From the NCBI GenBank assembly GCA_047602425.1, contig JASGHG010000001.1, forward strand, positions 4,384,001 through 4,448,000: a stretch of DNA of 64,000 bases. Direction: 5' to 3'. Below are positions 15,708 to 35,914 of this stretch, piece after piece. A program made the translations under genes and the position numbers. Position 1 is the stretch's first letter; each line of letters begins with the position of its first letter. The stretch is from Nibricoccus sp. Its GTDB lineage: Bacteria; Verrucomicrobiota; Verrucomicrobiia; Opitutales; Opitutaceae. The notes under the pieces were generated by a model. It saw only the letters and a program-made list of their open reading frames with translations. It was not told the DNA's origin and searched no databases.

Positions 15708-17399
15708 TCAACGTGCAGCGAGGAATGCCCGCCAGCCGCCGAACGAGGTGACGTCGCGAGCGTTTGCCACGGCGGCGGCTTCGCAGAGGAAACTCTGCAC
15801 GGTCGAGCCGTCGTCGAGCGTGACGGTGCCGATGCCAAGCGGACTCGGAATGTTGGAAACGAAATGGCCGTAACCCGCGACGGGGACGTTCCAGACTTCG
15901 ACTTCAATGGGCGCGCCGCCTTCGACGACCCGGATCAGTCCGGGTTTGGGCGGCGTGGTGCCGGGCAGGGCGAAGAGTTTGTAGGTGGGAGCCGTTTTGG
16001 TCGCGCGGTCGAGGGTCGCGCCGAGCTGGGTGAGTTGCCAGTTGAGCGGGAGTCCGCTGAGGTGCGCGCCGCAGACGGCAAGTTTAATCGTGCGGCCGGC
16101 AGATGGCAGGGAGCGTTGCGGCGCGGTTTCGCCGAGAAATTTTGCGCCGAGGCGGAGCACGCGATCATCGCAAAATGCGGGAGCGACGAGCGTAACGCCC
16201 CAAGGCATTTTGTTTGGCAAAAAGCCCACGGGAACGGCGACGGCACAGAGATCGAATAGGTTCAGGTAATTAGTATAGGTGCCGAGGTTCGAATTGAGAC
16301 GGATGGGATCGGACTCGACTTCGGCGACGGTGTAGACCGTGCCCGTGGTGGGCGTGAGCAATACGTCGATGTCGGCCCAAACGGCCTCGGCTTGGCGGCG
16401 GAGCGCAGCGAGTTTGTAGGCGGCCTCGAAGGCGGACGTGGCAGTGAGGGCGCGCGCGCTTTCGATGATCTGGCGCGTGACGGGATGCAGCGCGGCGGGT
16501 TGGCTCTCGATGAAAGGGCGGATGGCCGCATAACGCTCGGCGACCCACGGTCCCTCGTAGAGCAAGCGGGCCGCGGCGAGAAACGGCGTGAAGTCGATTT
16601 CGACGATTTTGGCGCCGAGCGAACGCCAGCGCGCGATGGCGGTGGCAAAAAGTTCGGCGGCGGCGGCGTTGCCGAAAAATTCGAGTTGGTCGGCGCGCGG
16701 CACGCCGATGCGAGGCGGCCAGACTTCATCGATCACCGGCGGAGTGGCGGGGCGGCTGTATGGATCTTCCGGATCGTAGGCGGCAGCGACGGAGAGAATT
16801 TCGGCGGCGTCGGAAATTGTGCGTGTGAAGATGGAAACGCAGTCGAGTGTGCGGCAGGCTGGAACCACGCCGCGGGTGCTGAGGAGGCCGCGCGTGGGTT
16901 TGAGGCCAACGAGGTTGTTGAAGGCGGCGGGAACGCGACCGGAACCGGCCGTGTCGGTGCCGAGGGCAAAATCGCATAAACCAGCCGCCACCGCCACGGC
17001 GGAGCCGGAGCTGGAGCCGCCGGGGATGTAAGCTGAGTTGAACGGATTTACGGGCACGCCATACGGTGAGCGCACGCCGACGAGGCCGGTGGCAAATTGG
17101 TCGAGATTGGTTTTGCCGAGGGGAATCGCTCCGGCATTGACGAGCCGTTGCACGACAGGAGCGGAAGTGGAGGGCGTGTACGCGAAATCGGGGCAGGCGG
17201 CGGTGGTGGGCACGCCAGCGAAGTCGATATTGTCCTTGATCGCAAACGTCAGACCGCGCAGTGGAGCGGGACCGAAAAGTTTGGCCGCGGCATCGGCGAG
17301 TCCGAGCACGTGCTCGCGGCACAGGCGCGAAATCCAGACGGGGTCCTTTCCGCGGGCGTCGAGGCGGGCGAGAGTTTCGGCGATGGGTGAAGGGGCCAT
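15708..17399 (-). CDS. atzF: Allophanate hydrolase
   Basis: AIKDNID, GKTNLDQFATGLVGVRSPYG, GGSSSGS, GTDTAGSGRVPA, C-terminal AVCGAHLSGLPLN. Confidence 0.95.
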   Translation of the reverse strand: MAPSPIAETLARLDARGKDPVWISRLCREHVLGLADAAAKLFGPAPLRGLTFAIKDNIDFAGVPTTAACPDFAYTPSTSAPVVQRLVNAGAIPLGKTNLDQFATGLVGVRSPYGVPVNPFNSAYIPGGSSSGSAVAVAAGLCDFALGTDTAGSGRVPAAFNNLVGLKPTRGLLSTRGVVPACRTLDCVSIFTRTISDAAEILSVAAAYDPEDPYSRPATPPVIDEVWPPRIGVPRADQLEFFGNAAAAELFATAIARWRSLGAKIVEIDFTPFLAAARLLYEGPWVAERYAAIRPFIESQPAALHPVTRQIIESARALTATSAFEAAYKLAALRRQAEAVWADIDVLLTPTTGTVYTVAEVESDPIRLNSNLGTYTNYLNLFDLCAVAVPVGFLPNKMPWGVTLVAPAFCDDRVLRLGAKFLGETAPQRSLPSAGRTIKLAVCGAHLSGLPLNWQLTQLGATLDRATKTAPTYKLFALPGTTPPKPGLIRVVEGGAPIEVEVWNVPVAGYGHFVSNIPSPLGIGTVTLDDGSTVQSFLCEAAAVANARDVTSFGGWRAFLAAR

Positions 17400-17410
17400 G
17401 CGGGAGGAAG

Positions 17411-17494
17411 ATTAGTAATTTGTAGTTGGTAGTTTGTAGTTGGTTTTTGACGAAGGGCAGCTTTGACGAACTACTAATTTCAAACTGCCAATTA
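17411..17494. repeat. Inverted heptamer (GTAGTTG/GTAGTTT) repeat hairpin between uca and atzF
   Basis: GTAATTT GTAGTTG GTAGTTT GTAGTTG ... AACTACT AATTTCA AACTGCC AATTAC. Confidence 0.75.
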
Positions 17495-20400
17495 CACTGC
17501 CGTTGCGGCGGCGATTGGCTTGATGACGACGAGTGGATCGCCGGCTTGCACGGGTTTGCCTTCGGCGCAGAGGACCTGTGTGACCTCGCCTGCGCCGGTG
17601 GCGAAGACGGAAATTTCCATTTTCATGGATTCGAGGATGACGAGAGCTTGATCGCGCGTGATGCGGTCGCCGGGCTGGACGTTGATCTTCCAAACGTTGC
17701 CGGGAACCTGTGCGACGATGGCGGTATGGCCTGGCGGGAGCGCGGCATGTTCGGCGGGGCCGGTGGAGGCTTCGCTCTCGGCGGAAAAGTTGAGCTGGCC
17801 GGACGCTTCCCAGCGTTTGCGCTCGGCTTCGAACGATTGCTGCTGGTTCGTCTTGAAGGCGGTGATGGAGGCGGCGTTATCGCGAAGGAATTTCCGATAG
17901 TCGCGCAGGCGAAATGTCTCGTGGTCAATCTTGAGCTTGTAACGGCCGAGCGGGAAATCCTGGCGGAATTTCAACAACTCCTGGGCACTGACCTCGTGGA
18001 ACTTAATCTGGTCAAAGAAGCGCAGCAACCACGGCTTACCGCCAGTGAAGTCAGAGGTTTGCCGCCAGCGGTTCCACATCTGCACGGTGCGGCCGATGAA
18101 CTGATAGCCGCCGGGACCTTCCATGCCATAAACGCACAGGTATGCGCCGCCAATGCCGACGGCGTTCTCGGGCGTCCACGTGCGAGCGGGATTGTATTTC
18201 GTGGTAACGAGGCGGTGACGCGGATCGACAGGCGTGGCGACGGGTGCGCCCAGATAAACGTCGCCAAGGCCGAGAACGAGATAGTTTGCGTCGAAGGCGA
18301 TGCGCTTCACGTCGTCGATGGAGTCGAGGCCGTTGATGCGGCGGATAAATTCGATATTGCTCGGGCACCACGGCGCGTCCTTGCGGACGGTCTGCATGTA
18401 TTTTCGGATGGCGAGGAGTGTGGACTCGTCTTCCCACGAGAGCGGCAAGTGGACGATGCGCGTGGGAACTTCCATATCGTCGAGAGCAGGAAGGTGAACC
18501 TCGGCGTCGATCAATGTCTCCATCAGACGTTCGAGCGGAAGCACGCGGCTGTCGAAGTGAACCTGAAGCGAACGGATGCCGGGAGTGAGATCGAGGATGC
18601 CGGGCGTGTGGCTGTCGACAAGCCAGTCCATCAAGGCGTGAACGCGGAAGCGAAGTTCGAGGTCGAGGACGGCGGGGCCGTATTCGATCAGCAAATACTT
18701 ATCGCCGGCGCGCCGGTAGACGACGGCGGGCAAATCGTCGCGAGGCGGAATGGTGTGGAGGATGGAGGAGGCAGTGGTTGGTAGTTGGTAGTTGGTGGTT
18801 GGTGCGGACGCAGGCGTGGCTTTGGAAGTTTTACCAATTCCCAAATCCCAACGACCAATTGCCCCGGCTCGTTGCCGGCCGGGAATCAAGGTCTCGATCT
18901 GCGCTTCGTGGACCGCTTCGAGTTCGCGGGCCTTGGCGGCGGTGACGGGCCGGAACCGGACTTTGTCGCCAGGCTTAAGCTGGCCGACTTTCCAGAGATC
19001 GGCGGTGATGATCGTCGCGGGGCATACGAAACCGCCGCAGCTCGGGCCGTCGGGACCGAGGATGATCGGCATGTCGCCGGTGAAATCGATCGCGCCGATT
19101 GCGTAGGCGTTATCGTGGATGTTGGACGGATGCAGGCCGGCTTCGCCACCGTCGGTGCGCGCCCAGCGCGGTTTTGGGCCAATCAGGCGGACGCCGGTGC
19201 GGGCGGAGTTGAAGTGAACCTCGTAGGTCGCGGAGAAAAGATCGGCGATGTCTTCGTCTTTGAAAAAATCGGGCGCACCATGCGGACCGTAGAGGACGGC
19301 GATGTCCCATTCGCGGGTATATGTTGGAACGAGGGCGGCCGGGAGTTTGCGGAGCGCGGAGGAGGTAGTTGGTAGTTGGGAGTTGGAAATTGGTGCGGAC
19401 GCAGGCGTAGGCGAAGGGTTTTCACCAATTACTAAAAACGAATTACCAACTACGGTTTGAGCGAAGTGAAGCACGTCGCCAGCGCGCAACGCACGTCCAG
19501 CGTGGCCGCCGAAGAGGCCGAGCGTGAAGGTGGCCTTGCTGCCGAGGTAATCGGGGACATCGAAACCATGCTGAATCGCCAAATAGGCGCGCATGCCGGC
19601 CTCGGTGACTGCACCGACGCGGAGGGTTTGGCCGCGTTTCACGCGGAAGGCGCGCCAGAAAGTCACGGGCTTGTCGTCGAGTGTCGCGGACGTGGCCGCG
19701 CCGGTCAGGGCGACGATGGCAGAAGTGTTGAAGCGGAGCGTGGGACCGCTGAGGGTAATTTCGAGCCCGGCGGCGGAAGCGGGATTGTCGACAAGACGAT
19801 TGGCTAGCCGGAACGCGAGGGCATCCATCGGTCCGGAGGGAGGAACGCCGACATCCCAATGCCCGAGGCGGCCGGGATAGTCCTGCACGGTGGTTTGGGT
19901 TCCGCCGTCGAGAACCTCAATGGTTGGTGCGGAGTAGGGAAGTTTTTCGAGATACCGCGTGGTGACTTTACCGGCGCGGAACCCTTCGGAGGCGAGAATC
20001 TGGCGCAAGTAGAGCAGGTTGGTTTCGAGGCCGGCGACGCGCGTTTCGGCGAGCGCCTGAGCGAGGCGGTTGAGCGCTTCGTCGCGTGTCGAACCGCGCG
20101 AAATCAGTTTCGCGATCATCGGATCGTAGTACGGGCTGACTTCGGAGCCACGCTCGACCCAGGTTTCAGTACGCAAGCTGTGCGGAACGACAAACTCGGT
20201 GAGCACGCCGGTGGCGGGTTGGAAATTTTTGCCAGGATCCTCAGAGTAGAGACGGACTTGGATCGAGGCGCCAAAAGAGCGGCGCTGAAAATTCGTGAGG
20301 TCAAGTTCGCCAGCGGCCTGCTTGACCATCCACTCGACAAGATCGATGCCGGTGACTTCCTCGGTCACGCCGTGCTCGACCTGGAGGCGGGTGTTAACTT

Positions 20401-21262
20401 CGAGAAAATAGAATTTGTTTGTCGCGTCGTCGAAGACGAATTCGACGGTGCCGGCGGACTCGTAGCCGGCGGCGTGGCCGAGTTTCTCGGCGCAAGCAAG
20501 TAGTTCGGCACGGACGTTTTCGGGCAGGCCGGGTGCGGGCGTTTCCTCGATGATCTTTTGGTTGCGACGCTGGATGGAGCATTCGCGCTCGCCGAGGGCG
20601 ACGACGTGGCCGCGTCCATCGCCAAAAATCTGCACTTCGATGTGACGGGCTCGCTCGACGTATTTTTCGAGGAAGAGACCGCTCTCTTTGAAATTGGCGC
20701 GACTGAGGCGATCGACGCGGGCGAACGCGGGTTCGAGCTCAGCGGCGTTCCAACAGAGTTGCATGCCGATGCCACCGCCGCCGGCCGTGCTCTTGAGCAT
20801 GACCGGATAACCGATGCGCTCGGCTTCGCGCAGCGCGGTGGCGACATCGGGCAAAAGTCCAGTGCCGGGAAGAAGCGGAGCGTTTTCTTTTTGCGCGATT
20901 TCGCGGGCGGTGTGCTTCAGGCCGAAGCGACGCATCTGATCGGGTTTCGGGCCGATGAACACGATGCCAGCGGCAGCGCAGGCTTCGGCGAAGCCTGGAT
21001 TTTCCGAGAGAAAACCATAACCAGGATGTATCGCCTGGGCGCCCGTCTGCTTGGCCACCTCAAGGATTTTTTCGATGACGAGATAGCTTTGGGCGGCTGG
21101 CGCAGGACCGATCAGAACAGATTCATCGGCCTCTGCAACGTGGAGCGAGCCGACATCGGCTTCGGAGTACACGGCAACGGACTTGATGCCCATTTTGCGC
21201 AGGGTGCGCTCGATGCGGCAGGCGATGGCACCACGGTTGGCGATGAGGACTTTGGTGAACAC
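17492..21262 (-). CDS. uca: Urea/guanidine carboxylase (biotin-dependent)
   Basis: Biotin carboxylase (IANRGAIA, HPGYGFLSEN, EVNTRLQVEH), carboxyltransferase (GLHPSNIHDNAY, KYNPARTWTPENAVGIGG), biotinyl ESMKME; GTG start. Confidence 0.96.
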   Translation of the reverse strand: MFTKVLIANRGAIACRIERTLRKMGIKSVAVYSEADVGSLHVAEADESVLIGPAPAAQSYLVIEKILEVAKQTGAQAIHPGYGFLSENPGFAEACAAAGIVFIGPKPDQMRRFGLKHTAREIAQKENAPLLPGTGLLPDVATALREAERIGYPVMLKSTAGGGGIGMQLCWNAAELEPAFARVDRLSRANFKESGLFLEKYVERARHIEVQIFGDGRGHVVALGERECSIQRRNQKIIEETPAPGLPENVRAELLACAEKLGHAAGYESAGTVEFVFDDATNKFYFLEVNTRLQVEHGVTEEVTGIDLVEWMVKQAAGELDLTNFQRRSFGASIQVRLYSEDPGKNFQPATGVLTEFVVPHSLRTETWVERGSEVSPYYDPMIAKLISRGSTRDEALNRLAQALAETRVAGLETNLLYLRQILASEGFRAGKVTTRYLEKLPYSAPTIEVLDGGTQTTVQDYPGRLGHWDVGVPPSGPMDALAFRLANRLVDNPASAAGLEITLSGPTLRFNTSAIVALTGAATSATLDDKPVTFWRAFRVKRGQTLRVGAVTEAGMRAYLAIQHGFDVPDYLGSKATFTLGLFGGHAGRALRAGDVLHFAQTVVGNSFLVIGENPSPTPASAPISNSQLPTTSSALRKLPAALVPTYTREWDIAVLYGPHGAPDFFKDEDIADLFSATYEVHFNSARTGVRLIGPKPRWARTDGGEAGLHPSNIHDNAYAIGAIDFTGDMPIILGPDGPSCGGFVCPATIITADLWKVGQLKPGDKVRFRPVTAAKARELEAVHEAQIETLIPGRQRAGAIGRWDLGIGKTSKATPASAPTTNYQLPTTASSILHTIPPRDDLPAVVYRRAGDKYLLIEYGPAVLDLELRFRVHALMDWLVDSHTPGILDLTPGIRSLQVHFDSRVLPLERLMETLIDAEVHLPALDDMEVPTRIVHLPLSWEDESTLLAIRKYMQTVRKDAPWCPSNIEFIRRINGLDSIDDVKRIAFDANYLVLGLGDVYLGAPVATPVDPRHRLVTTKYNPARTWTPENAVGIGGAYLCVYGMEGPGGYQFIGRTVQMWNRWRQTSDFTGGKPWLLRFFDQIKFHEVSAQELLKFRQDFPLGRYKLKIDHETFRLRDYRKFLRDNAASITAFKTNQQQSFEAERKRWEASGQLNFSAESEASTGPAEHAALPPGHTAIVAQVPGNVWKINVQPGDRITRDQALVILESMKMEISVFATGAGEVTQVLCAEGKPVQAGDPLVVIKPIAAATAV
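18772..18862. repeat. In-frame heptamer-hairpin insertion in uca (copy 1)
   Basis: GTGGTTG GTAGTTG GTAGTTG GTGGTT-GGTGCGGACGCAGGCGT-...-CCAATTC CCAAATC CCAACGA CCAATTG. Confidence 0.75.
19364..19453. repeat. In-frame heptamer-hairpin insertion in uca (copy 2)
   Basis: GTAGTTG GTAGTTG GGAGTTG GAAATT-GGTGCGGACGCAGGCGT-...-CCAATTA CTAAAAA CGAATTA CCAACTAC. Confidence 0.75.
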
Positions 21263-21267
21263 GGGAA

Positions 21268-21299
21268 AGTAGTTGGTAGTTTGTAGTTGGTAATTGGTA
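21268..21299. repeat. Left heptamer arm flanking the four-helix-bundle gene
   Basis: GTAGTTG GTAGTTT GTAGTTG GTAATTG GT. Confidence 0.8.
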
Positions 21300-21359
21300 C
21301 GGGGATGCTCAATCTTTTGTTGCTCTCGTGCATTGGTGCAGGCTTCCTATAAATCCACT

Positions 21360-21737
21360 ATGGCGACTTTTGTATTGGATGAACTGAGGGTTTACCGCAT
21401 GGCGGAGGAATTGGCGGACGCGACGTGGGATTTGATTGGTGATTGGGCTCCGTTTGCTAAGGAAACCGTTGGCAAGCAGCTGGTGCGCGCGGCCGATAGC
21501 GTCGGTGCAAACATCGCCGAGGGTTACGGACGAGCGTCGCCGGCCGACAATCAACGTTTCGTGAGAATGGCACGCGGATCTCTTTACGAAGTTAGGCATT
21601 TTCTGCGCCGAGCGGATAAGCGAGGGCTGGTGGATAAGACGTCGAAGCAGGCATTGCAGAAAGTTCTCAGTGAATTGCTCCCGGGATTGAATGCATACCT
21701 TCGTTCCCTGCGAAATGGCGGGGATGGTGACAAATAG
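21360..21737 (+). CDS. Four helix bundle protein (23S rRNA IVS protein / Avd-like family), antisense to the operon
   Basis: ELRVYRMAEEL, KQLVRAADSVGANIAEGYGR, RFVRMARGSLYE. Confidence 0.9.
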   Translation: MATFVLDELRVYRMAEELADATWDLIGDWAPFAKETVGKQLVRAADSVGANIAEGYGRASPADNQRFVRMARGSLYEVRHFLRRADKRGLVDKTSKQALQKVLSELLPGLNAYLRSLRNGGDGDK

Positions 21738-21768
21738 GAATTTTACGGAGGTGCACACAGGTGTTTCG

Positions 21769-21797
21769 ACCAACTACCAAATACAAACTACTAACTC
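21769..21797. repeat. Right (inverted) heptamer arm flanking the four-helix-bundle gene
   Basis: ACCAACT ACCAAAT ACAAACT ACTAACT. Confidence 0.8.
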
Positions 21798-21798
21798 C

Positions 21799-22491
21799 TC
21801 AATCCGACGCATGGGAGGGCTTGGCATTCCAAACCAAAACTTCGATTGGCGTCGGGTTGTAGGCGTTGCAGGGGTTGTTGAGTTGGGGGCAATTTGAGAT
21901 GAGGCAGATGACGTCGCGTTCGGCGCGGAGCTCGACGTAACGGCCCGGCCCTGAAACGCCGTCTTCGAACGTGAGGCGACCGTCGGGCGTGACGGGGACG
22001 TTCATGAAGAAGTTGATGTTGCAGGTGATGTCGCGTTTGCCCCAGTCATGTTTTTCGAGATGGAAACTGTGGCATGAGCAGGAAATTTCCTGGGCGCCGC
22101 GAATAAAACTGTCGCGGCAGGCGTGCATGTGCTCCTTTTCAAGGGCGTAGCGCATGGTGTTGCTTTCGCGCGAGCAGGCGCCGCCGAGCGTGTCGTGGCG
22201 ACCGCAGGTGTCGGCAACGATAGTGAGGAGCGCGTCGCCTTCGGTGGAAACGAGGCGCGTTCCGGTTGTGAGGTAGAGAGCACCTTGGTGACGAATCGTA
22301 TCGGAGGCGCTGTAGCGGTTGGCTGGTTCGTGTGCGTCGTAGAAAAGTGTGTCGGCCGCCTGATTTCCCTCGAGATCGACGATGCGGAGGGTTTGGCCCT
22401 TTTTAACGACGTAGGAAAAATAGTCGCCGGCGAGCACGACCTTACGGAATGCCGCGGTGGATGGGTCGAGTTTGCTTTCGGTGAGGGTCAT
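21799..22491 (-). CDS. cgdB: Urea carboxylase-associated protein 1 (DUF1989), carboxyguanidine deiminase subunit B
   Basis: [54 protein letters not shown]. Confidence 0.88.
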
Positions 22492-22558
22492 GGGAGGCGG
22501 TGTCTCGCGAAGATACGAAGGGGGCGAAGGAGGAGTTGATAATCAATCCGAAGAAAGG

Positions 22559-23281
22559 TTAGGAGCTTAGCGCGTAGTAGTTCTCGGTGTTGAGGAAAGC
22601 TCGGGCGTTTTCCGGGCGGGAGTTGCGGCACGGGTCGTCCGCGGTGGGCGGTGGTGTGGCGAAGATTTCTACCTTCACGTTGCGCGGGTGGTAGACGGGA
22701 TCTGGATCGAGCGGGTGCTGACAGGTGTTGAGCACGACGAGCGTGTTCATCTCGAAACGGAGATCGACGGAGCCGCCGGCTTTCGAGTGGTCCGAGACGA
22801 AGGAGAGTTTGCCGGAGTCGTCGGCGACAACTTTGGAAAATAGATTAAGGTTCGGCACGAGATCGCGTTTGCCGAGACCATGCTTGGCGAGTTCGATGAG
22901 GAAGCAGTCACGGCCGTTGCGGAAAAATTCGTTTCGAGAGGTCTGGTAGTTTTTGTCGCCGTATTTTTGGGCGACGAGGTTGGCGTCGGAGCAGCCGCAA
23001 ACGGTGTCGTGCCAGCCGGCGGAATCGGCGACGATCGATGCGAGGACACGTCCCATGTCGGAATGCAGACAATACGGTGCGCGGACATGGAAGATATGCT
23101 GGCCCTTGAGCGTATCAGGCATGTTGTACCGTTCGGTTGGTTGGTCGGCGTTGTAGAGAAGCAGGCCAACGTTCGCACCGCCTTCGAGATCGGTGAGACG
23201 CAGAGTCTTGCCGCGAGAAATCACGCCCGACCACATGCCGGCGTGGTGGAGTTGCTTGGTGAGGAGTGGGGCGGAGATCAT
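22559..23281 (-). CDS. cgdA: Urea carboxylase-associated protein 2 (DUF1989), carboxyguanidine deiminase subunit A
   Basis: [48 protein letters not shown]. Confidence 0.88.
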
Positions 23282-23286
23282 TGGCG

Positions 23287-23330
23287 GTATTACGAAATTA
23301 ATGAAAAGTGTTACTGCAAGGATCGTGCCG
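23287..23330 (-). promoter_or_regulatory. Sigma54 promoter with abutting GTATTAC-N14-GTGTTAC operator upstream of cgdA
   Basis: Minus strand CGGCACGATCCTTGCA (GG-N10-GC, 23330-23315); half-sites at 23287-23293 and 23308-23314. Confidence 0.75.
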
Positions 23331-23377
23331 ATTCCTCAGGACGGGTGAAAATTGCCACTGCTTTGTGCTCGGATTGT

Positions 23378-23878
23378 CTACCGAAGGGGTGGAATGGCGG
23401 CGGCGGTGAGATTGAGCCGGCCATTTTTCACGCCTTTGCACGTGACGAGCTCGTCGGTCAGTTTGCGCAGTTCGTTTGCCGGCCCCTGAACGAGGAGAAC
23501 TTCGAGGTAGTTGTGATGTTCCAAGTGTACGTGCATACTGGATACAATCAGCAAGTAGTAGCGGTGTTGGATTTCCGCGAGGCGCGCCTGGAGATCTTTT
23601 TTTCGATAGTCGTAAACGAGGCTGACCGTGCCGGCGACAGAACCGGTGCCGATTTCGCTGGCAAACTCGACCAAACCGTCGCGAGCGAGCGCAGCCACAG
23701 CTTGCGAGCGACTCTGAAAGCCACGACTTGCCACCATGGCGTCGAGCTCGTCGAGCAGGCTTTCAGGAAGCGAAATGCTGAAGCGGGCGACTTTGTCGGA
23801 GCGGGCAGCTGCGACCGGCGAATCCGTTGAAGGATTCGCCGCTGTGGGCAGAGTTGAGTTTCTAGAAGAGGCGGGCAT
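23378..23878 (-). CDS. NikR-family ribbon-helix-helix regulator lacking the nickel-ligand Cys
   Basis: [17 protein letters not shown]...[18 protein letters not shown]...[20 protein letters not shown]. Confidence 0.85.
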
Positions 23879-25223
23879 AACGATCGACTTCCCACTGGCT
23901 GACAGTGAGGTGGTAGGCGCGCCATTCCTCGGATTTGTAGGTGATAAACTCGTCGCGCAATTCCTGGCCGAGCGTTTTGGCGATAAACGGATCGGCGGCG
24001 AAAAGCTCCACGGCTTCCTCCAAGTCGCGTGGCAGATAGGAAATGTTTCGTTTGGCTAGTTCGGTTTCAGGAAGTTCATAGAGGTTCTCCTCCTGGGGTG
24101 AGCCCGGATCGAGTTTTTCGCGGACGCCTTCCAGGCCGGCGGCGAGCAGCAGCGTCGCGGCGAGGTAGGGGTTGCAGGCGGAGTCGGCATTGCGGCTTTC
24201 GCAGCGGCCTCCGCCCATAGGCACGCGAATGGAGTTGGTGCGATTGTTGGTGCCGAAGCTGTTGAAGACTGGCGCCCATGAATAGTAACTCATCGCACCG
24301 CGGCGAACGAGGCGTTTGTAACTGTTGACCGTCGGAGCGAGCGCCGCACAGATCGAGCGACCGTGGCGAATGACGCCGGCGATGAATGAGTAGGCGAGCG
24401 GCGTGAGTCCTAGGCCGCGCGGGTCTTCCTTTGGATCGCACTTGAATGCGTTTTTTCCCGAGGCGAGCTCGTAGAGCGACATGTTGAAATGGGCGCCGTT
24501 ACCGGTTTTGTCGGCGAAGGGCTTGGGCATGAACGTGGCGAGCAGGCCCTCCTCGGAAGCAAACTGCTTCGCCATCATGCGGAAAAAGACGTAGCGGTCG
24601 CACATGGTTAGGGCGTCGGCATATTTGAAATCGAACTCGAACTGCGAAGGCGCATCCTCGTGGTCGAGCGAATAAAGGTCCCAGCCGAGGTTGTTGATCG
24701 CGGTCGAAACCTTGTCGAGCCAGGTGTAGCGATCCATGAAGCGCTTGATGTCGTAGCAGCTCTTCACGAGGTTGTCGTCGGAGTTGGGAATCGAGAGCTT
24801 GCCATCGTCACCGTGCTTCACGACGAAGACCTCACACTCGATGCCGAGGTTGAAACCGAGTCCGAGCTTGGCGGCGTCGGCGAGGACGTTTTTCAGCGCG
24901 ACCCGTGTGTTGATAGGATATGGTTCGTCGTGGAAGGTGTTATCGGCGGGAAACCAGGCGACTTCGGATTTCCACGGCAAAATGATACCACGATCGAGAT
25001 CGGGGAGGGAGGCGATTTCGTCGTCGTTTGGGCGCTGGCCCAAGCCATCGAGCGCGTAGCCGGTGTAAAGCTCGGACCCGTGCGCAAAGTGGAGGAAATG
25101 ATCGATGGGCACGAATTTGCCCTTCGGAATGCCGTGAATATCAGTGTAGGCGCCGACGCAATATTTGACGCCCTTGGCTTTGAGTTCGGCCTGAAGTTTA
25201 AGAATGTCGGAATCGGATTTCAT
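23862..25223 (-). CDS. Type III glutamate-ammonia ligase (GlnT / gamma-glutamylmethylamide synthetase-like)
   Basis: [66 protein letters not shown]. Confidence 0.85.
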
Positions 25224-25285
25224 TTATGAAAAGATAAAGGGTTGTTGGCGATGGGTGATGGGTCCTGTTACTGGCTATTCTCTTT

Positions 25286-26101
25286 TCATAAATGCGAAGG
25301 CGACTGGCCGCTGGCGGACGGAAAATAAGGCACGTCGAGTGGAGAACGTTCGCGCATGCCGCGGCGGACGAGCTTGGCGAGATCGGTGACGAGCCAACGA
25401 AGAAGGCGCTGGCCTTTGGCCTGGGTTGCGCGGCTGGGAAAGCCCGTAACGCCATTGGCACTGGTGCGGTTGACTGGGTGGGCAAAAACGAGACCGCCGG
25501 TGCGGTCAGGATCGTCGGATTTTTTCAGAAGGCGGGGACGGAGGATTTCCGGCGCAGCCGCGAGCATGAGGGCGGTTTCGGCGGCGTTGGCGTGCCAATC
25601 TGCAGCGTCGGAAAAAAACTCACGTCTAACGCGCGGGCTGGCCTCCGCGGCATTGATCACCGCGATCATGAAGCCGTCGTGGCGGCTCCGCAGAATTTCG
25701 AGCGCGCAGCGAAGCGGTGCGTGGTTCGTGACGTGAGTGTTGAGTAAAAAAAGGCGGCGGAAACCCGCGGCAAAGAGCCAGTCGCCGATGTCAGTCACAA
25801 GTGAAATCAGCGTCTGTGGCTGCAGCGCCAGCGTGCCGGGCCAGCGATGCGAATGTCCCAGAGAGCAGCCGTAGTGCAGCGTCGGCAGGACAGGAACGCG
25901 GGTCGTGGCAGAAACGGCTTCGCCCAGAATGGTCGCCAGGGAAGCATCCATGCCGGTGCCGAGGTGCGGACCATGCTGCTCGGTGGCGCCGCAGGGCAGG
26001 ATCACGCCGTCGACGCCGCTGGCGTGCAATGCAGCGATCTCGGGCCAGGTTAGTTTGTCCCAGGCGAGCGGTTTTGGCGAAGACTGTTTTTTGCGCGGCA
26101 T
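25286..26101 (-). CDS. Creatininase-family amidohydrolase
   Basis: LPCGATEQHGPHLGTGMD, YGCSLGH..WPGTL, NTHVTN, DWHANAAET. Confidence 0.88.
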   Translation of the reverse strand: MPRKKQSSPKPLAWDKLTWPEIAALHASGVDGVILPCGATEQHGPHLGTGMDASLATILGEAVSATTRVPVLPTLHYGCSLGHSHRWPGTLALQPQTLISLVTDIGDWLFAAGFRRLFLLNTHVTNHAPLRCALEILRSRHDGFMIAVINAAEASPRVRREFFSDAADWHANAAETALMLAAAPEILRPRLLKKSDDPDRTGGLVFAHPVNRTSANGVTGFPSRATQAKGQRLLRWLVTDLAKLVRRGMRERSPLDVPYFPSASGQSPSHL

Positions 26102-26103
26102 AG

Positions 26104-27021
26104 TTATTCAACGTCGTCGCCGACCTGGGTCAGACGCACGATGGGAAGTCTTTCGATTTCGGCGCTGTGGACGTCCGTTTTGGGGTGGATCAATTCGTCC
26201 AACCGCCTCCGGGTGGCGAGGAACTCCGGCGAATTCACCTGCGCCAGATTGCGAGGCCGGGGCACGGGCACTTCGATGATTTCCTGAACTTCGCCGGGAT
26301 TGGCCTTGAGCACGAGAATGCGATCGGCGAGGAGCACGGCTTCATCGAGATCGTGCGTGATGAAGAGGATGGTGACGTCGACATTGCGCCAGATTTCGAG
26401 CAAGTGCGTCTGCATCTGCGCGCGCGTCTGGGCATCGAGCGCGCCGAACGGTTCGTCCATCAGGAGGATTCGTGGATTGGCGGCCAGCGCACGCGCGATG
26501 GCGGTGCGCTGCTTCATGCCGCCGGAGAGCTGGGCTGGGTAGGCATTTTCGAACCTTGAAAGACCGACAAGCTCGATCCACTGACGCGCTTCGCTGGAGG
26601 CCTGCGTGCGTTCCATGCCCTGCATCTGCAAGCCGAACATCACATTTTCCGCAACCGTGCGCCAGGGGAAAAGCGTGTAGCCCTGGAAGACCATGCCGCG
26701 ATCGGGGCCGGGGCCGTGGACCTCCTTGCCGTCGAGCAGCATGCGACCGGAAGTCGGATAATCGAGGCCGGCGACCATGCGGATGAGCGTGGACTTGCCG
26801 CAGCCGGAGGGGCCGATCACGCAGAGAAATTCGCGGCGGTGGACTTTGAACGACACATCGCGCAAGGCGGTGACCGGGCCATTTTCGCCCTCGAACGACC
26901 GGCCGAGTTGCTGCACATCGAGGACGACGGGGCGTTCCTTGAGCTTGCGAAAACGTTCCGCGACGGCAGACGATTGCGTGCGATAGTCGGGAAGGCTGGA
27001 AATTTCGGTCGCGGAAGTCAC
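26104..27021 (-). CDS. ABC transporter ATP-binding protein (TauB/SsuB-like)
   Basis: [32 protein letters not shown]. Confidence 0.93.
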
Positions 27022-28070
27022 TTGGTAAGAATGGGCTTGTAAGGTGGAATTTTAATCAGCGGCGTGGCGTAACGATCGGTGACGAGACGGACGAAATACG
27101 TGCGCAGACGGCTGGGGCGCGGATTTTTCCACGCGAAAACGCGAACTCCGATAAAGGCGAGTACCTGATCGGTGAGCAGGCCGATGACGCCAATGATCAC
27201 GATGGCGGCATAAACGTTGTCGAAGTTGCGGTACTTGGCCTGCTGATTGATGAAGAAAGTGATTCCCGAACTAACGCCTACCACCTCCGCAACGATCAGG
27301 TAGGTCCAAGCCCACCCCAGCAGAATGCGCAGGTCGTTATAGAGATCAGGGAGGCTGGCGGGGACAATGACGCGCCAGACGAGTTGCCGGCGTCTCGCTC
27401 CGAGTGTCTGCGCAGCCTCGATCAGGCTGATCTCGGTTTTTCGCACCGTATTTGAAACTACGAGGACCTGCTGGAAGAAAGTTCCGATGACAATGATGGC
27501 GACCTTGGGTTCGAGATGGATGCCGAAGATGGCGACCATGAGCGCTCCGAAGGCCGGAGCTGGCATATACCGGATGAAATCGACAAAAGGCTCGGTGAGA
27601 CGGGCGATCGCAGGATGCGCACCGCAAAAAATCCCAAGCGGCACACCGATCAGCGAAGAGATGACGAAGCCCCAGAAGATGGTCTTGATGCTCATCCAAA
27701 GACTCTCATGCAACCAAAGGTCGCCACGCAGAACCGGCTTGGTGGTGAACGCGGTGTAAAGCGCCCGGGCGACGGCGTGCGGAGCGGGAAGAAAAATCGG
27801 ATTTGCGCGCGTGCCCGTGGGAAGGTTTCCGCCCTCGGACTGCAAGCGCGTTGCTTCCTTGGTGAAATCGGCTCGAGGAATAAGCAAGCCCGGGCGAAAC
27901 CAGGAGACATCGCCAGGCGAATCCACTTTCACCATCGGGTGCCAGATGAACGGCACATAGCTCACGATGCACCAGAGCGCCAGGGGTAGCAAAAACGCCA
28001 GCACGCCGAGCACCATGCGGCGGCGGGGTGTGAGGTCTTTGCGGACCGAAAGCCAGCTCTGTTTAGGCAT
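27018..28070 (-). CDS. ABC transporter permease (TauC/SsuC-like)
   Basis: [35 protein letters not shown]; start chosen at MPKQSW. Confidence 0.9.
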
Positions 28071-28163
28071 GACGTGGAATTTTGGATACAACCCAGCCCT
28101 GCGCCGGGCCATTGGCTGCCCGGCGGGGCGAAGAAGACGGAGGGGTTTACGAAGGGCGGGTGA

Positions 28164-29162
28164 TTACTTTTTCTTTAGAACTTCAGCAGTGAGCGACGCG
28201 TCGATGTACGAAGGAACGTTCTGCGCTTCTTTGTAGACGCCATTGGTTACGTTGAATTCGTCGGCGATTTTCGAAGAGCCGATGAGCGAGTCGAAACCCT
28301 TGGTCTGAGCCGAGAGGACTTTACCGCCTTCGGCGAGGGTGAGGAACTGGGTGCCGGGCATGAAGGAAGCGTACTCCTTGGGATCCACACCGGCGCGGGC
28401 AGCCATGATCTTGATGCCGTCTTCACGGGTCTTCGGATCTTTCAAATAAGCCACAACCTTGTCCCAGACGGAAACGAACTTGACCCAATCGGCACGGCGC
28501 TGGGCGAGACTCTGCGGGGTGACGACGACGGCGTCGTAGATCAACCCGGGTTCATTGGCGCTGGTGTAAATGGCCTTGGAGCCGGGGACGGCCTTGAGAG
28601 CGGCCCCGGAATTGGGCTGCCAGGCGCCAATGGCGTCGACCTGTCCGGACGCGAGCACCTGCGGCGTCTGATTTGTGGGGGTGGGAACCAGTTCGAGATC
28701 TTTTTCGGTGAGGCCCACTTTCTTCAGGCCGTTGAGCAGGAGAAGATGTTCAACGAAGCCGATCTCGATGCCGATTTTTTTGCCCTTGAGGTCTTTCAAC
28801 GAGGCGATGCCGGGCTTGGCGACGATCATGTCGTTACCATTGGAAAAATCGGTCATGAGGATCATGACGTTTTTCGCGCCGTTGGCGCCCGTAACGAGGG
28901 CGTCGCCGTTGGTTACGGTAACGGCGTCGCATTTACCGGCGGTGAAAGCTTCCATCGACGGGCCGTACTCGAACCAGAGCAGTTCGACTTCGACGCCGGC
29001 TTCTTTGAACCAACCCTTTTGTGCGGCGATTTCGAGAGCGGTCCAGCCGGGCCAGTCCGAGAAGGCGACTTTGAGTGGTGCGGCGGAAGCGAGGCTGGTG
29101 ATGAGAACGAAGAGCGTGGCGAAAACAGACAGACGGCGGCGGAGGGAGGAGGTGGTGATCAT
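28164..29162 (-). CDS. ABC substrate-binding protein (NMT1/THI5-like, urea-carboxylase-associated type)
   Basis: Signal peptide, [20 protein letters not shown]. Confidence 0.88.
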
Positions 29163-29170
29163 TGGAGGCA

Positions 29171-29225
29171 GTGTTACTTTTTGAGCAAAACGTGTTACGC
29201 CTGTCTCTCAGCACGGGCTATGCCA
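29171..29225 (-). promoter_or_regulatory. Sigma54 promoter with downstream GTGTTAC-N14-GTGTTAC operator upstream of the ABC operon
   Basis: Minus strand TGGCATAGCCCGTGCT (29225-29210); half-sites at 29171-29177 and 29192-29198. Confidence 0.72.
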
Positions 29226-29327
29226 CGAATGGCCGCATGAATATTTCCACGCTTAGTGTAGAGGACGCGGCTCTCAGGTGTGGTGCTTGCCTCCGAGAAG
29301 ACCGGGAGGGTAGCTTGCGGTGATTGT

Positions 29328-29741
29328 ATGAAAACCATCGATGAATTTTTTCGGAGCGACCAGTTTGTGAATCACTGCGGTATTGAACTGATATCGCATG
29401 CGCCAGGACAGGCGGTGGCTCGAATGGTGGTAAGGCCGACTCATCTGAATGCGTTGGGCATCGTGCAAGGCGGAGCGATTTTCACGCTGGCGGATTACGC
29501 CTTTGGTGTGGCCTCGAACGGCCATGGCTCGGCTGCGGTTGGCATTAGTGTGAGTATAACCTACGTCAAAGCGACAACCCACGGCACGCTCACGGCGGAG
29601 GCGCGCGAAGTATCGCTAAACCCGAAGCTGGGCAGCTATACCGTCAATGTGACGGATGAGAATGGCACCATGGTCGCGATCTTCCAAGGGCTCGCATATC
29701 GGAAGAAACAGCCGATCGCCGACGAAGTGAAGCACGGCTGA
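29328..29741 (+). CDS. PaaI-family hotdog-fold thioesterase
   Basis: HLNALGIVQGGAIFTLADYAFGVASN. Confidence 0.88.
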   Translation: MKTIDEFFRSDQFVNHCGIELISHAPGQAVARMVVRPTHLNALGIVQGGAIFTLADYAFGVASNGHGSAAVGISVSITYVKATTHGTLTAEAREVSLNPKLGSYTVNVTDENGTMVAIFQGLAYRKKQPIADEVKHG

Positions 29742-29757
29742 CAACGCACCCGGATAG

Positions 29758-32244
29758 TTACCGATCGCGGGCGAGCCACTGCTCCAAGTCAGAGGATGAA
29801 TCTATCTGATGGCTGGTTCGGTATTCGGAGGCGAGGAGCTTGGTGTAACTTGGTTCGGCAAAGCGACGGCAATGCAGGAGCACCTTGGCTTGTTGTCCCG
29901 GTGCGCGCACAAGGCGCCCGAGCGCTTGGTTCACTTTTTGGATGCCGGGAGCTTGATACACCCGACGAAAGGCTTCGTCGCGACCGAGTGGGGCGGCCTC
30001 GGCAAGCCGGGCTTTTTGCACCGGGTTGACCTCGGGCAGCGCCGGGCCGACGACCATGGCGTGGCTGACGCGTCCGCCGAGCAGATCGATGCCCTCGGCG
30101 AAACTACTGCCAAGAACCAAAAATAGGACGTCGGCTTGCACGAGCGATTCCTCGACCCAGGCGGTCTGGGCAGCGAGATCGGGCAGGCGGGGTTGCAGCG
30201 CGACGCGAAGACGAGAGCCGTTGTCCCGCAGGATGGTTTGAATGGCTTCGGCGTAGCGATAGCTCGAAAAGAAAACGGCGCATGGTCCGTGAGCGGCGGC
30301 ATGGATTTTCTCGATGGTTGCCGCGGTCGTCCCATGGTGGCGGGTGCGTTGCTGGTAGGAAGTGTCGACGCGCAGGTCGATGGCGACGTCGTAAGCGTGG
30401 TCGCGCCAAGGGGCGTGAGCTTGCACGAGCGCAGGTGCCTGACTGGCGTTGGTCTCCTCGACTTTGAGCAATTCGGCACCGGAAGTGAGCTGTTTATAAA
30501 GACGCCGAGTATCGCGTTTATTAAGTTTCCCGAGACGTTCTGGTGGCGTGGCAGGTGGTTCGGGTTCGGTGATGGACGGAGTGTCGAGACCGCAATCGGC
30601 GGCAAAGGTGTCACTTGGGGTCAGGGTGGCGGAAACAAGAAGCGCTCCGCCAAAGGATCGCAGGGTTTGGCCGATCGCCGCGGCGGCATCGAGGCAGGTC
30701 ACGGCGAGTTCGCCAGGCTGGGGACTCCACCAGAGGCGTGGCAGGGCGAGATTGGCGAGTTCGTCGGCGAAGGAAGGGAATTGCCAAAGCTGCTCCATGA
30801 CGTCGGGGCCGAGCGCGGTATTATCAAGCGGCGTCGTGCTGACGAGGCTGGCGACCGTTTCGAGAAGGTGGCGTGTATCGTCCTCTTCGGCGAGCGAGAG
30901 ACTATCGCTGACACCGAGTTGGCTCAGGTGATGCGTCCATTGGTCCCACGCTTGTACGAGGCGTGCTGGAGCGCGGATTTGGTGAAGTTCGGCAGCGACG
31001 GTATTGGCGATTGTAGCGGAGAAGCGCCTCGAAAACACATCGGCGACGCGTGAAGGAAGATTGTGCGCTTCGTCGAGGACAAGGAGCGTGCGCGCTGGAT
31101 CGTAGCCGGGCTGATTTTCGAACAGGCCACGGCTGGAAGGCGAAAAAACGTAGTTGTAATCCCCGATCCAGACATCGTTGAAGGCGAGGGCGGCGCGGGT
31201 GATTTCGTAGGGGCAAACGGAAGCGGCGCGCCCCGCTTTGCGCAGATTGTCGATGTCGCGCGTTTCGGTATCGAAAAGATAAAAACGCGAAAGGCCGCTG
31301 CGCGGCCACTTGCGTTCGAGGTCGTTGAGATGAGGGCAGACTTCGCGCGAACAGTGATACGTTGTGTGAATGCAATGCTCGCGCTTGTTGCGTATTTGCC
31401 AGGCCAATACGCCAGCGCGGCCGTCGGGTTGCCGGGTCATGCGCGCGAGAGTCTCGGCGACGTGCAGTTGGCCGGTCGATTTACTGGTGAGATAAATGAG
31501 TCGCTCAAAACGACCGGAGCGCAGGAGTTCCAACGCGCATTCGAGCGTGACGCCGGTTTTTCCGAACCCAGTCGGCGCTTCGAAAAAAACGATGGGATGT
31601 TGGGCGAGGGCTGTGGCCAGCTCGTTCTGCACCGTTTCCTGTCCCGGGCGTAGCGCGGCGAATGCCGGTTGGAAGCGCAGGGTTTGCAGACGTTCACGGG
31701 CACGGAGGCGCTGATCGAGAAATTCCGTGATTCGTTCCAGTTGGGTGCGGAAAATGGCATCGTCGGCCGGCGAGAATGTGACCGTTTGTGACAACCCGGT
31801 GTCGACTTCGACGAAGACGAGTTCACCCCGAATTTTGGACGACGTTGTTTCCGTCAACGCCGTGAGCGCGACATAGGTGGCAAGTTGGGCGAAGTATTCG
31901 GGATACTCAGCGCGCAATTCTTCTTCGGCGGCGGGAAGCGCGCGGGTAATGGTTTTTATTTCGCGCAGCAGTGCGCCCGACCCGTCAGGAATAATCTGAT
32001 CGATGCGGCCACTCAGCCTAAGAGTCCAACCGCGATGAAAAACTTTTCCGTGAATTGGAACTTCGAATTGCGCGGAGGGTTGATCGGCGGTGGCTTGAAC
32101 GCGGAGTTGCTGATGCCAATGCGTGCCGAGTTGCGCGCGCCAGATTCCCTGCGGACCATCGCCACCGTCGCGCGGGCCGATCACGAAGCTGGCGAAATCG
32201 CCGACTCCGAGGGCTGCGGTGCGTTGTTCGAGGGAAAAATCCAC
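29758..32244 (-). CDS. DinG/Rad3-family Fe-S DNA helicase with N-terminal PD-(D/E)xK (Cas4-like) nuclease domain
   Basis: LGTHWH, LSGRIDQI, EIKT, YFAQLATY; EAPTGFGKT, Cys cluster, CPYE, DEAHN, SATL, EGIDL, QALGRLVR. Confidence 0.88.
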   Translation of the reverse strand: MDFSLEQRTAALGVGDFASFVIGPRDGGDGPQGIWRAQLGTHWHQQLRVQATADQPSAQFEVPIHGKVFHRGWTLRLSGRIDQIIPDGSGALLREIKTITRALPAAEEELRAEYPEYFAQLATYVALTALTETTSSKIRGELVFVEVDTGLSQTVTFSPADDAIFRTQLERITEFLDQRLRARERLQTLRFQPAFAALRPGQETVQNELATALAQHPIVFFEAPTGFGKTGVTLECALELLRSGRFERLIYLTSKSTGQLHVAETLARMTRQPDGRAGVLAWQIRNKREHCIHTTYHCSREVCPHLNDLERKWPRSGLSRFYLFDTETRDIDNLRKAGRAASVCPYEITRAALAFNDVWIGDYNYVFSPSSRGLFENQPGYDPARTLLVLDEAHNLPSRVADVFSRRFSATIANTVAAELHQIRAPARLVQAWDQWTHHLSQLGVSDSLSLAEEDDTRHLLETVASLVSTTPLDNTALGPDVMEQLWQFPSFADELANLALPRLWWSPQPGELAVTCLDAAAAIGQTLRSFGGALLVSATLTPSDTFAADCGLDTPSITEPEPPATPPERLGKLNKRDTRRLYKQLTSGAELLKVEETNASQAPALVQAHAPWRDHAYDVAIDLRVDTSYQQRTRHHGTTAATIEKIHAAAHGPCAVFFSSYRYAEAIQTILRDNGSRLRVALQPRLPDLAAQTAWVEESLVQADVLFLVLGSSFAEGIDLLGGRVSHAMVVGPALPEVNPVQKARLAEAAPLGRDEAFRRVYQAPGIQKVNQALGRLVRAPGQQAKVLLHCRRFAEPSYTKLLASEYRTSHQIDSSSDLEQWLARDR

Positions 32245-32770
32245 AATCGGACACGTTCCAGCGCGACGGTTGAGGCGTCAATTCAACACGAAAAATATGT
32301 CCTGATTGGGAGGTGAATCCCTCGAAAAGAAATTCAGATACGCGAGGCGGTTTTCGTCCGCATGAAAAAAACATCCCAAAAAAATGCGCGGAATTGAAGG
32401 GATGTGAGAAACACCGGTGTTCGGTGTGATTAGAAACCCTTTCGACCTAAAGTAGATTTGCTGTCCGAACGCATCATGATTTTCCACCACCCAATTTAAC
32501 TCCCGTACGATATATTGAGTAAACGCATCGAGCGTTAATAGAGGCCACAACACACCAACTGTCGGTATTCACGACAGTCATACACCACAAGAGCGGCCGG
32601 TAAACCAGACAGCGTGGCAATCAAATCCCATGGAATTGCGACGGCTGGTTTTTAGACGGCAACTTTACCGATATTCCCCTGTTCGTTGCAGGGCGAAGGC
32701 GACTGCCTGCATTCGGGCATGCGGTCCTCATCGCCGCCCGTCTTTGTTCCTACCCACACCCAATAACACC

Positions 32771-35700: not shown

Positions 35701-35914
35701 TATGTACAAGGCCCCCGAAAGTAAAACGAAGTTCGAGGTCAGCTATTCCTTTGATTCTAAGTGCACGGCGTTCTTCGAAATCGATAACATCGGTTATCGG
35801 CGCAAGGAATATTTCAAGAACGGACAGGCGCTCGGCCAAAGCTACAAGTTGCCCGCGACTTACTATGTCTACGGTGATCCGGTGGTCCGCCTGGGCATCA
35901 AGGGCGCATTCTAG
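32771..35914 (+). CDS. TonB-dependent receptor with N-terminal carboxypeptidase-regulatory-like domain
   Basis: Signal peptide, GTVNGQVVD, plug NIGEYLKFLPG..ALRGL..GGYINMVTKS, C-terminal LGIKGAF. Confidence 0.92.
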   Translation: MNTVNTRLYSQNPPRKIFRRFIVGACALLLCLTSAAFAQQTGTVNGQVVDGATGKYLEGAEVNISGTDLHTTTERDGRFTLRNVPAGSQKVVVHYPGLDSAETGTEVKAGQGVDVQIKLAAQDVIRLGEFKVEGTKEGMAQAIQLQKVAIESKLIAANDQFGNISEGNIGEYLKFLPGVGIVYNSNDARGVALRGLRSQFTTIDVDGTPMASTSSMADSRRFETEQVSANSVEKNEIVKTITPDMPANSTGGYINMVTKSAFDRQDPQRLDYKFYLTGPTSRLSLNPQDGTWGKGSHYVVRPNLNLNFAKRITDKIGLNINYSLSEIYHDSPRTAYTWNINNQGLMSAVAPGGPTPVVIGGVTYQSYGTRTTVDDPALVTYNMNNEQKLTHRESFAGKVDYIISDSTRLSVSGQWNWYDLTFRQRGTLFNLGANASGIVNLVGATQNAANSTASTVAANGSVGTSAGRSIQVNDNQRNKYVTGYHFNTTLTHQFNDASKAWIAAYWSQADGKYRDHTKGYFSQGVAQYTGGVVGGSIPQYIVDNVLDDPKHPSVLINGGSTPFSSTFDRNAYALLGAGLMRLQPFNALDTKTGFNAHYKYTFDSAIPVSLQAGGAFDKTGRNIRRIGLFSTNIPYISPVAAGVLEDKPVDYGFDFGSGNAIDLYKLYEKYQGLIPGGRVNNDNWRRFDEENTAGYLRADATFLKDLLVVGGVRWEKRTTKGKAANYATPLGRLLSTEIKYDNWYPSVTLRYTPNRNWVVRAGFSRTVGDPDYSELVPDFTAATTPAATDASLSAPSRDLKPYYVNNYDASVEYYFKKTGVVGGSVFRKEVSGFIINRIVPLTDPLMVKAIADYSINPADFGLTTTGTVRVNGASSEINGFEVWYNQNLSFLPKPFDGLNVQVNYTWVDIDADDLDTLYAQYTDAVTRAVNVRLSYRWRKFQTAISTNWTGETLTTAAANTITVTNSDGSRTAINVLNMYKAPESKTKFEVSYSFDSKCTAFFEIDNIGYRRKEYFKNGQALGQSYKLPATYYVYGDPVVRLGIKGAF

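Follow-up and report, generated by a model that had tools for sequence, protein, structure and literature searches.

A NikR-like regulator and its two conserved predicted operators at a guanidine-type carboxylase gene cluster of Nibricoccus sp.

Introduction

Guanidine degradation by the Gca-CgdAB-AtzF pathway, which is supplied by an importer, is described as being controlled by guanidine-I and guanidine-II riboswitches (PMC12186494, PMC12508155), and a 2025 review lists a protein receptor for guanidine as a class still unknown. The nickel regulator NikR, with solved structures from E. coli (1q5v/2hzv), P. horikoshii (2bj1/2bj3) and H. pylori (6mrj), combines a ribbon-helix-helix (RHH) domain with an ACT domain and binds DNA as a homotetramer in response to nickel; His87, His89 and Cys95 together with His76′ are reported as its nickel ligands (PMC7055735). 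For delta-proteobacteria, the predicted NikR box is given as GTGTTAC-N13/14-GTAACAC (PMC545781). Here, we analysed a stretch of 64,000 nucleotides (nt) of Nibricoccus sp. (Opitutaceae; JASGHG010000001.1, 4,384,001-4,448,000), hereafter called the window, in which a NikR-like regulator gene and two NikR-type boxes belong to a gene cluster for a predicted guanidine carboxylase pathway. Coordinates are window positions; the host genome (G000) has a size of 5.16 Mb and its closest named relatives are Opitutaceae.

The regulator shares with NikR the RHH and ACT domains, the fold, the histidines H76, H87 and H89 and, as predicted from sequence, a bipartite operator, of 28 bp here and 27-28 bp for NikR. 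It differs by a tyrosine in place of Cys95, by a glutamine where strand 3 of NikR ends in arginine or lysine, and by a PPL tail at the C-terminus, and its predicted targets are nitrogen-catabolic genes at predicted sigma54 promoters rather than nickel uptake genes. Half-site and spacing are those of the delta-proteobacterial NikR regulon, as presented in PMC545781, and of verrucomicrobial NikRs with a complete set of ligands, whereas the half-sites of the window form a direct repeat on the sense strand and stand at importer and carboxylase operons instead of nikMNQO/CbiM-type or TonB-dependent uptake genes. The riboswitch-controlled pathway, as outlined in the two articles cited above, has the same four enzymes, the same diagnostic aspartate and an importer, but the window carries predicted protein operators, short leaders without a riboswitch and additional creatininase-family and GlnT-like genes.

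The regulator is thus a candidate protein sensor for a pathway for which only RNA switches are known. It would represent a metalloregulator fold that was moved to a metabolic regulon with its DNA code kept, the branch with three histidines and a tyrosine being a possible intermediate state. The regulator is small, its two predicted operators are exactly defined and matched counterparts under riboswitch control exist, so that the question is readily testable. A repressor responding to guanidine, if confirmed, would also be of use in biosensing of this compound and related ones in wastewater. No published description of such a regulator was found in a literature search that lay outside RegPrecise, subscription journals and supplements, which could already list the regulon.

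Results and Discussion

The regulator and its predicted operators

Judged by comparative sequence analysis, the regulator and its boxes constitute a real, conserved regulon that retains a NikR-like fold and a predicted NikR-like reading of DNA, with an altered nickel site. RHH (PF01402) and NikR_C/ACT (PF08753) domains were identified above cut-off, as was PRK04460, while TIGR02793 remained below. The protein is approximately 30-40% identical to solved NikRs and the top fold matches of its model were all NikR proteins, in agreement with the NikR fold proposed in the initial annotation of this DNA. Alignment with the NikRs of E. coli, P. horikoshii and H. pylori also confirmed the proposal that the histidines are kept and that tyrosine occupies the position of Cys95, so that the high-affinity nickel site of NikR is retained only in its three histidines. 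The designation of the protein as cysteine-less was not correct, because one cysteine is present elsewhere (VTCKG). No other NikR_C gene exists in the genome. We refer to regulators with this His3-Tyr set (HHHY at positions 76, 87, 89 and 95), the window protein included, as the branch; HHHY was found in 119 of 120 homologues among the matches listed (501 were found) and in all but two of 36 related loci (34 of 36), where HNHY and one truncated protein were seen instead.

The two boxes (Table 1) match exactly. With up to 1 mismatch allowed, the window contains no others, and none of 100 shuffles yielded two matches. They trail predicted GG-N10-GC sigma54 elements by 1 nt (operator 1) and 12 nt (operator 2), with a chance of about 0.001 for the loose sigma54 pattern to fall within 20 positions of a given site. 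Transcription from sigma54 promoters usually starts 12 nt past the C of the -12 element, a rule on which all predicted start-relative positions given here are based; the predicted leaders comprise 23 nt for the UAAP1 operon and 37 nt for the importer operon. Scanning of 36 related loci at up to 1 mismatch revealed 46 boxes in 31 of them, located 1 nt (20 sites), 12 nt (12 sites) or 6-11 nt (5 sites) past the -12 element, the remaining 9 having no sigma54 element by the pattern used. Both spacings of the window hence recur in relatives, and the two-site regulon at sigma54 promoters that had been suggested from the window alone is backed by conservation of the motif in homologous loci. The motif itself is not new: its 7+14+7 architecture fits the delta-proteobacterial consensus, and the same box was found beside the genes of canonical NikRs of Verrucomicrobiota, which carry the ligand set HHHC.

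In whole-genome scans, 9 of 10 branch genomes had two boxes in the carboxylase cluster, and boxes outside the cluster occurred at about the rate of a reversed-pattern control with the exception of one good site in the relative G007. A third exact match in the host genome (G000:C1:3967684) scored 22.6, as compared to 38.1 and 37.4 for the two operators, with no sigma54 element seen next to it; given its low score and the lack of a counterpart in all 5 relatives compared, it is probably a chance match. A box variant with a 16-bp gap was rejected as part of the regulon since 4 of its 6 matches represent one repeated element. These four identical copies of a sequence containing GTAACAC-N16-GTAACAC (G000:C1:326725, 3860638, 4544108 and 4744842) are probably the end of an insertion element.

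Regulator and operator were also linked across the phylum. Within an even sample of 401 Verrucomicrobiota genomes, NikR_C was detected in 134 and the deiminase gene UAAP1 in 41; a NikR-like gene is linked in 34 of these 41, sharing the contig in 33 cases and lying beyond a contig break in 1. None of the 34 linked regulators retains Cys95: 9 are HHHY and 25 have lost more of the site (RHQT, RHLI, RQMN, HLHS and others). The operator was present at 26 of the 34 clusters with a linked regulator at up to 1 mismatch and at 30 at up to 2 mismatches, and at none of the 7 clusters without one. As a canonical comparison set, the 30 top-scoring other NikR_C loci of the sample were used; all encode HHHC proteins and none lies beside a cluster gene. 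Transporter genes next to canonical NikRs encode CbiM in both of two cases tested and TonB-plug proteins in both of two others.

The genome encodes rpoN and 12 NtrC-like activators, none of them above the ntrC cut-off. Of 42 regions upstream of boxes, 39 showed no NtrC enhancer even when 4 mismatches were allowed, and the other 3 had only matches at the 4-mismatch level in scattered positions. A scan for sigma70 promoters and terminators gave nothing above chance. Both operon-leading genes (starts at 23281 and 29162) share the start context CCA ATG ATC, and the UAAP1 leader has no obvious Shine-Dalgarno sequence.

The targets expected of NikR, nickel uptake and nickel enzymes, were not those observed, the boxes being confined to the carboxylase cluster. 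The host genome possesses a urease and a urea importer; NiFe hydrogenase and NiCoT were not found in it with the queries used. No box stands at its urease operon or at any nickel importer in the genomes searched, and urease was rejected as a member of the regulon because only 1 of 20 urease operons fetched from relatives has a box. This single operator (G007; L186:1501-1528; G007:C1:3613447) is found at a porin-urt-urease operon, some 55 nt upstream of its sigma54 element, and is possibly a recent gain of the regulon.

The gene cluster and the guanidine pathway

The cluster consists of two co-directional operons on the minus strand (Table 1). Operon 1 carries the genes for the three ABC importer components (binding protein, permease and ATPase), for a hydrolase of the creatininase family, for a ligase resembling GlnT/GmaS and for the regulator; operon 2 encodes UAAP1, UAAP2, the carboxylase and allophanate hydrolase. 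In an alignment to 3va7, Asp726 of the carboxylase coincides with an asparagine of the K. lactis urea carboxylase, presumably Asn1330 as the diagnostic Asp/Asn position, which fits the alignment. Aspartate occupies this column in 73 of 73 aligned locus rows, with some genomes counted twice, and an active-site aspartate as opposed to asparagine is presented as the hallmark of guanidine carboxylases in PMC12186494. The joint presence of an Asp-type carboxylase, CgdAB and allophanate hydrolase indicates a guanidine carboxylase pathway, as predicted from these sequences. For the ABC binding protein, no close solved structure was found that could suggest a ligand.

Table 1. Predicted genes and control elements of the carboxylase cluster (window positions).
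Feature	Position	Strand	Basis and remarks
Allophanate hydrolase AtzF	15708..17399	-	TIGR02713 above cut-off
Urea/guanidine carboxylase, guanidine type	17492..21262	-	TIGR02712; Asp726 by alignment to 3va7
UAAP2, DUF1989 (carboxyguanidine deiminase subunit; CgdB by gene order)	21799..22491	-	TIGR03424 above cut-off
UAAP1, DUF1989 (carboxyguanidine deiminase subunit; CgdA by gene order)	22559..23281	-	TIGR03425 above cut-off
Operator 1	23287..23314	-	sense GTAACAC-N14-GTAATAC; forward GTATTAC-N14-GTGTTAC; matrix score 37.4; predicted -10..+18; 5 nt 5′ of UAAP1 ATG
Predicted sigma54 -24/-12 element, deiminase-carboxylase-hydrolase operon	23316..23330	-	CGGCACGATCCTTGCA; GG 23329-23328, GC 23317-23316
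NikR-like regulator, RHH + ACT, ligand positions H-H-H-Y	23378..23878	-	PF01402 + PF08753, alignments, model and fold search; last gene of operon 1
GlnT/GmaS-like glutamate-amine ligase	23862..25223	-	TIGR03105 above cut-off; nearest solved 9qur, 7cql; ~40% to annotated plasmid glnT genes
Creatininase-family amidohydrolase (family-level call)	25286..26101	-	PF02633 above cut-off, TIGR04448 below
ABC ATPase (NitT/TauT type)	26104..27021	-	profile matches
ABC permease	27018..28112	-	PF00528; true start possibly near 28070
ABC substrate-binding protein (NMT1/SsuA-like)	28164..29162	-	profile matches; 56-57% identical Burkholderia/Paraburkholderia counterparts trail guanidine-I riboswitch
Operator 2	29171..29198	-	sense GTAACAC-N14-GTAACAC; forward GTGTTAC-N14-GTGTTAC; top matrix score in genome (38.1); predicted +2..+29; 8 nt 5′ of binding-protein ATG
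Predicted sigma54 -24/-12 element, importer-creatininase-glnT-regulator operon	29211..29225	-	TGGCATAGCCCGTGCT; GG 29224-29223, GC 29212-29211

GlnT and creatininase genes accompany 16 of the 34 linked regulators of the phylum sample. The closest solved relatives of the window glnT gene product are γ-glutamylmethylamide synthetases (GmaS), from which it is set apart by the modest identity to annotated glnT genes and by the pairing with a creatininase-family gene. This pairing and the likeness to GmaS hint at an N-substituted guanidine as substrate, which we take as a lead only; no literature on the gene pair was found. A perfect 14-bp inverted repeat (25221-25294; fold -14.6 kcal/mol) pairs the stop region of the creatininase gene with the start codon of glnT and could couple translation of the two genes. 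In one relative (L129:1382-4144), tandem GlnT-like genes with 42% and 73% identity to that of the window lie 3′ of the creatininase-family gene, and in three relatives glnT is separated from the regulator gene by a second ABC importer that is more distantly related (L022:1573-3965, L026:5280-8441 and L054:5232-8294).

Riboswitch and protein control

Guanidine riboswitches are the usual but not the universal means of control of this pathway. The initial annotation had considered the leaders too short for a ykkC-type riboswitch and the regulator to be the apparent replacement of a guanidine riboswitch. The former holds: even the guanidine-II model, with 48 positions, is longer than both predicted leaders. 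A search of the window against Rfam gave no match at the gathering score, nor did one of positions 21000-30000 at E<=5. Guanidine-I and guanidine-II riboswitches were also not found in the host genome by searches in which, here and in the phylum sample, only top candidates were scored; a guanidine-III search had no control that gave a signal. Among the 41 deiminase-positive verrucomicrobial genomes, guanidine-I was detected in none and guanidine-II in 5, never on the carboxylase contig.

Rfam analysis of 18 regulator-bearing loci, the window included, yielded no guanidine riboswitch in 16 and guanidine-I in 2, both from Acinetobacter. For comparison, 10 plasmid carboxylase loci without regulator were hand-picked from 227 records, 2 by binding-protein similarity and 8 for taxonomic spread; guanidine-I was present in 8 of them and the box in none. 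In Burkholderia pyrrocinia and Paraburkholderia sprentiae, the genes of the binding protein and of UAAP1 each follow their own guanidine-I riboswitch, with neither regulator nor box, and these are the same two control points as those of the boxes in the window. At one promoter of Acinetobacter baumannii, three elements stand in series: the box at L168:5440-5467, a sigma54 element and, at 5502-5597, a guanidine-I riboswitch. Two more boxes lie in the cluster. Seven verrucomicrobial clusters (L151, L153, L157, L159, L160, L164 and L165; two cut by contig ends) contain three DUF1989 genes; neither a regulator nor an operator or riboswitch was found in them, nor a urease in their genomes. Thus, the proposed replacement fits only in part: a riboswitch is absent here and the control points match, but the event as such cannot be shown, because A. 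baumannii stacks both devices, seven clusters have neither and guanidine-I is missing from all 41 genomes.

Spread and ancestry of the regulator family

Carboxylase clusters with the same NikR-like gene also occur in Asticcacaulis, Sphingobium, Novosphingobium and Acinetobacter. Among the best 150 representatives of a profile search, 72 complete 50%-clusters without Cys95 displayed 60 different signatures, only 2 being HHHY, and 63 of the 72 keep Gln107. Gln107, Leu113 and Pro139 are invariant in 77 of 77 locus proteins without Cys95, position 107 being mostly arginine in 32 canonical proteins. Across the family, the four metal positions therefore vary freely while Gln107, Glu96 and the C-terminal proline are held. 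Some members are highly divergent (31-34% identity). An ESM Atlas search returned only clusters named NikR. In databases, many of the genes are annotated as nickel-responsive, a label that most members probably do not deserve.

A tree of 77 out of 113 sequences, 36 near-duplicates having been removed by hand, resolved HHHY proteins and the other members without Cys95 as sister groups, both with good support, within a background of verrucomicrobial HHHC proteins. Their union was supported with 99/96 when all columns were used; without the ligand columns, Gln107 and the tail, support fell to 87/43, with the union in 84% of bootstrap trees. For this reason, a single origin of all members without Cys95 is favoured by the sequence data rather than established.

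Proposed mechanism and alternative explanations

With a probability of roughly 60%, we consider the protein to be a local, NikR-derived repressor of both operons that is released by guanidine or a pathway metabolite and is not activated by nickel. This weight is divided about equally between guanidine as the signal and a substituted guanidine or pathway intermediate in its place (carboxyguanidine, allophanate or a product of the creatininase and GlnT enzymes). A regulator tetramer would occupy each 28-bp box, with each RHH dimer reading one 7-bp half-site as in NikR. Binding would block initiation, because the box of operator 1 spans the predicted melting region and start site and that of operator 2 the first 29 nt predicted to be transcribed. 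With its gene in last position of operon 1, the regulator would thereby restrain its own production. Nitrogen starvation would enter as a further input via sigma54 and some activator. Upon induction, the substrate would be imported, guanidine carboxylated and deiminated to allophanate, and ammonia released. We favour a metabolite signal on three grounds: the regulon comprises only uptake and breakdown genes of the guanidine type, its control points coincide with those of the riboswitches, and in relatives it is run by proteins without metal ligands.

Several observations weigh against this proposal. Canonical NikR binds DNA in its liganded state, so that an inducer would require a flipped allosteric sign. 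H76, H87, H89 and Y95 are nearly invariant in the branch (the 119 of 120 homologues mentioned above and 44 of 45 locus proteins) while neighbouring residues vary, as would fit a retained metal site. Urease, a nickel enzyme, was present in 18 of 18 branch genomes tested, and one branch genome of the 10 scanned, G314, has no box at up to 1 mismatch. At the stacked A. baumannii promoter, a guanidine-sensing repressor would be redundant, a point softened by the statement in PMC12508155 that two guanidine riboswitches in one operon are common.

In the main alternative, the conserved site and the presence of urease would be explained if the branch still sensed a metal, either nickel or a harder ion favoured by tyrosinate, which as a co-repressor would shut down the ATP-costly, nickel-free carboxylase route whenever urease can be loaded. 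Such a sensor would preserve the allosteric logic of NikR, and it is in line with the position of the regulator as the sole NikR_C gene of its genome, with the adjoining of HHHY and canonical HHHC proteins in the tree and with the box ahead of the urea uptake-urease operon of G007. We nevertheless regard it as unlikely: boxes are lacking at 19 of 20 urease operons and at the nickel importers of the genomes searched, the carboxylase is of the guanidine type so that urease offers no alternative route for its substrate, and the sister group runs the same regulon without metal ligands. The argument from urease co-occurrence is weakened as well, since it holds equally for His-less members; among genomes of the same taxonomic family, urease was found in 13 of 13 with any such regulator and in 7 of 23 without, kin not being independent. 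Urease hence appears to track nitrogen scavenging and not the His3-Tyr site.

ACT domains often bind amino acids, and the co-repressor logic of NikR could likewise have been kept for a signal of nitrogen sufficiency (glutamine, an ammonium-derived signal or a γ-glutamyl product of GlnT) that sharpens sigma54 control. The invariant Gln107 and the conserved Glu96 could form a polar pocket, the operator and riboswitch stacked in Acinetobacter would then receive two different inputs, and a consensus NtrC site was not found upstream of the boxes. The local character of the regulon, with no box at urt/ure sigma54 promoters in 19 of 20 loci, and the occurrence of GlnT and creatininase genes with less than half of the linked regulators make this explanation quite improbable. 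Even less credible is a regulator without small-molecule effector, which would either damp two strong promoters constitutively under autoregulation or be released by a partner protein. The old metal site indeed has no residue conserved throughout the family and some members are highly divergent, but the whole ACT domain is kept with its family-specific invariant residues, and a ligand-less damper would not be expected to mirror riboswitch control points.

If the metabolite-released repressor is accepted, a more far-reaching version can be proposed tentatively, which we are inclined to doubt as it stands: the protein might be a receptor for guanidine that arose from a verrucomicrobial nickel sensor, keeping the DNA box and changing the effector. 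The His3-Tyr branch would then be the first step, with Cys95 lost and the histidines kept, perhaps for a metal that helps metabolite binding. The rest of the metal site would have been lost afterwards in the sister branch, the one that reached Alpha- and Gammaproteobacteria.

Further observations

Guanidine clusters of two other organisms contain a 2OG-Fe(II) oxygenase together with a partner. In Acinetobacter sp. (L091:13314-17444), the pair lies behind a NikR-type box along with an SMR exporter; in Paraburkholderia (L222:5041-6980), the partner is a TIM-barrel protein. The two partners are mutually unrelated, and either set could release guanidine from a substituted compound. An identification of the Acinetobacter pair as MgdH/MgdL was attempted and not achieved.

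A short GTAGTTGGTAGTT-like repeat occurs in frame inside the carboxylase gene at 18760-18856 and 19351-19453, where it adds approximately 17 and 19 residues as compared to the orthologue of the same genus, and between genes at 17408-17449, 21255-21312 and 21769-21805. It flanks a gene for a four-helix-bundle protein (TIGR02436; 21294-21737, plus strand) between UAAP2 and the carboxylase gene and looks like a small mobile repeat that is tolerated in coding sequence. At a distance of 3 kb from the cluster, the window encodes a large TonB-dependent receptor (32630-35914) with a carboxypeptidase-regulatory-like N-terminal domain and no operator.

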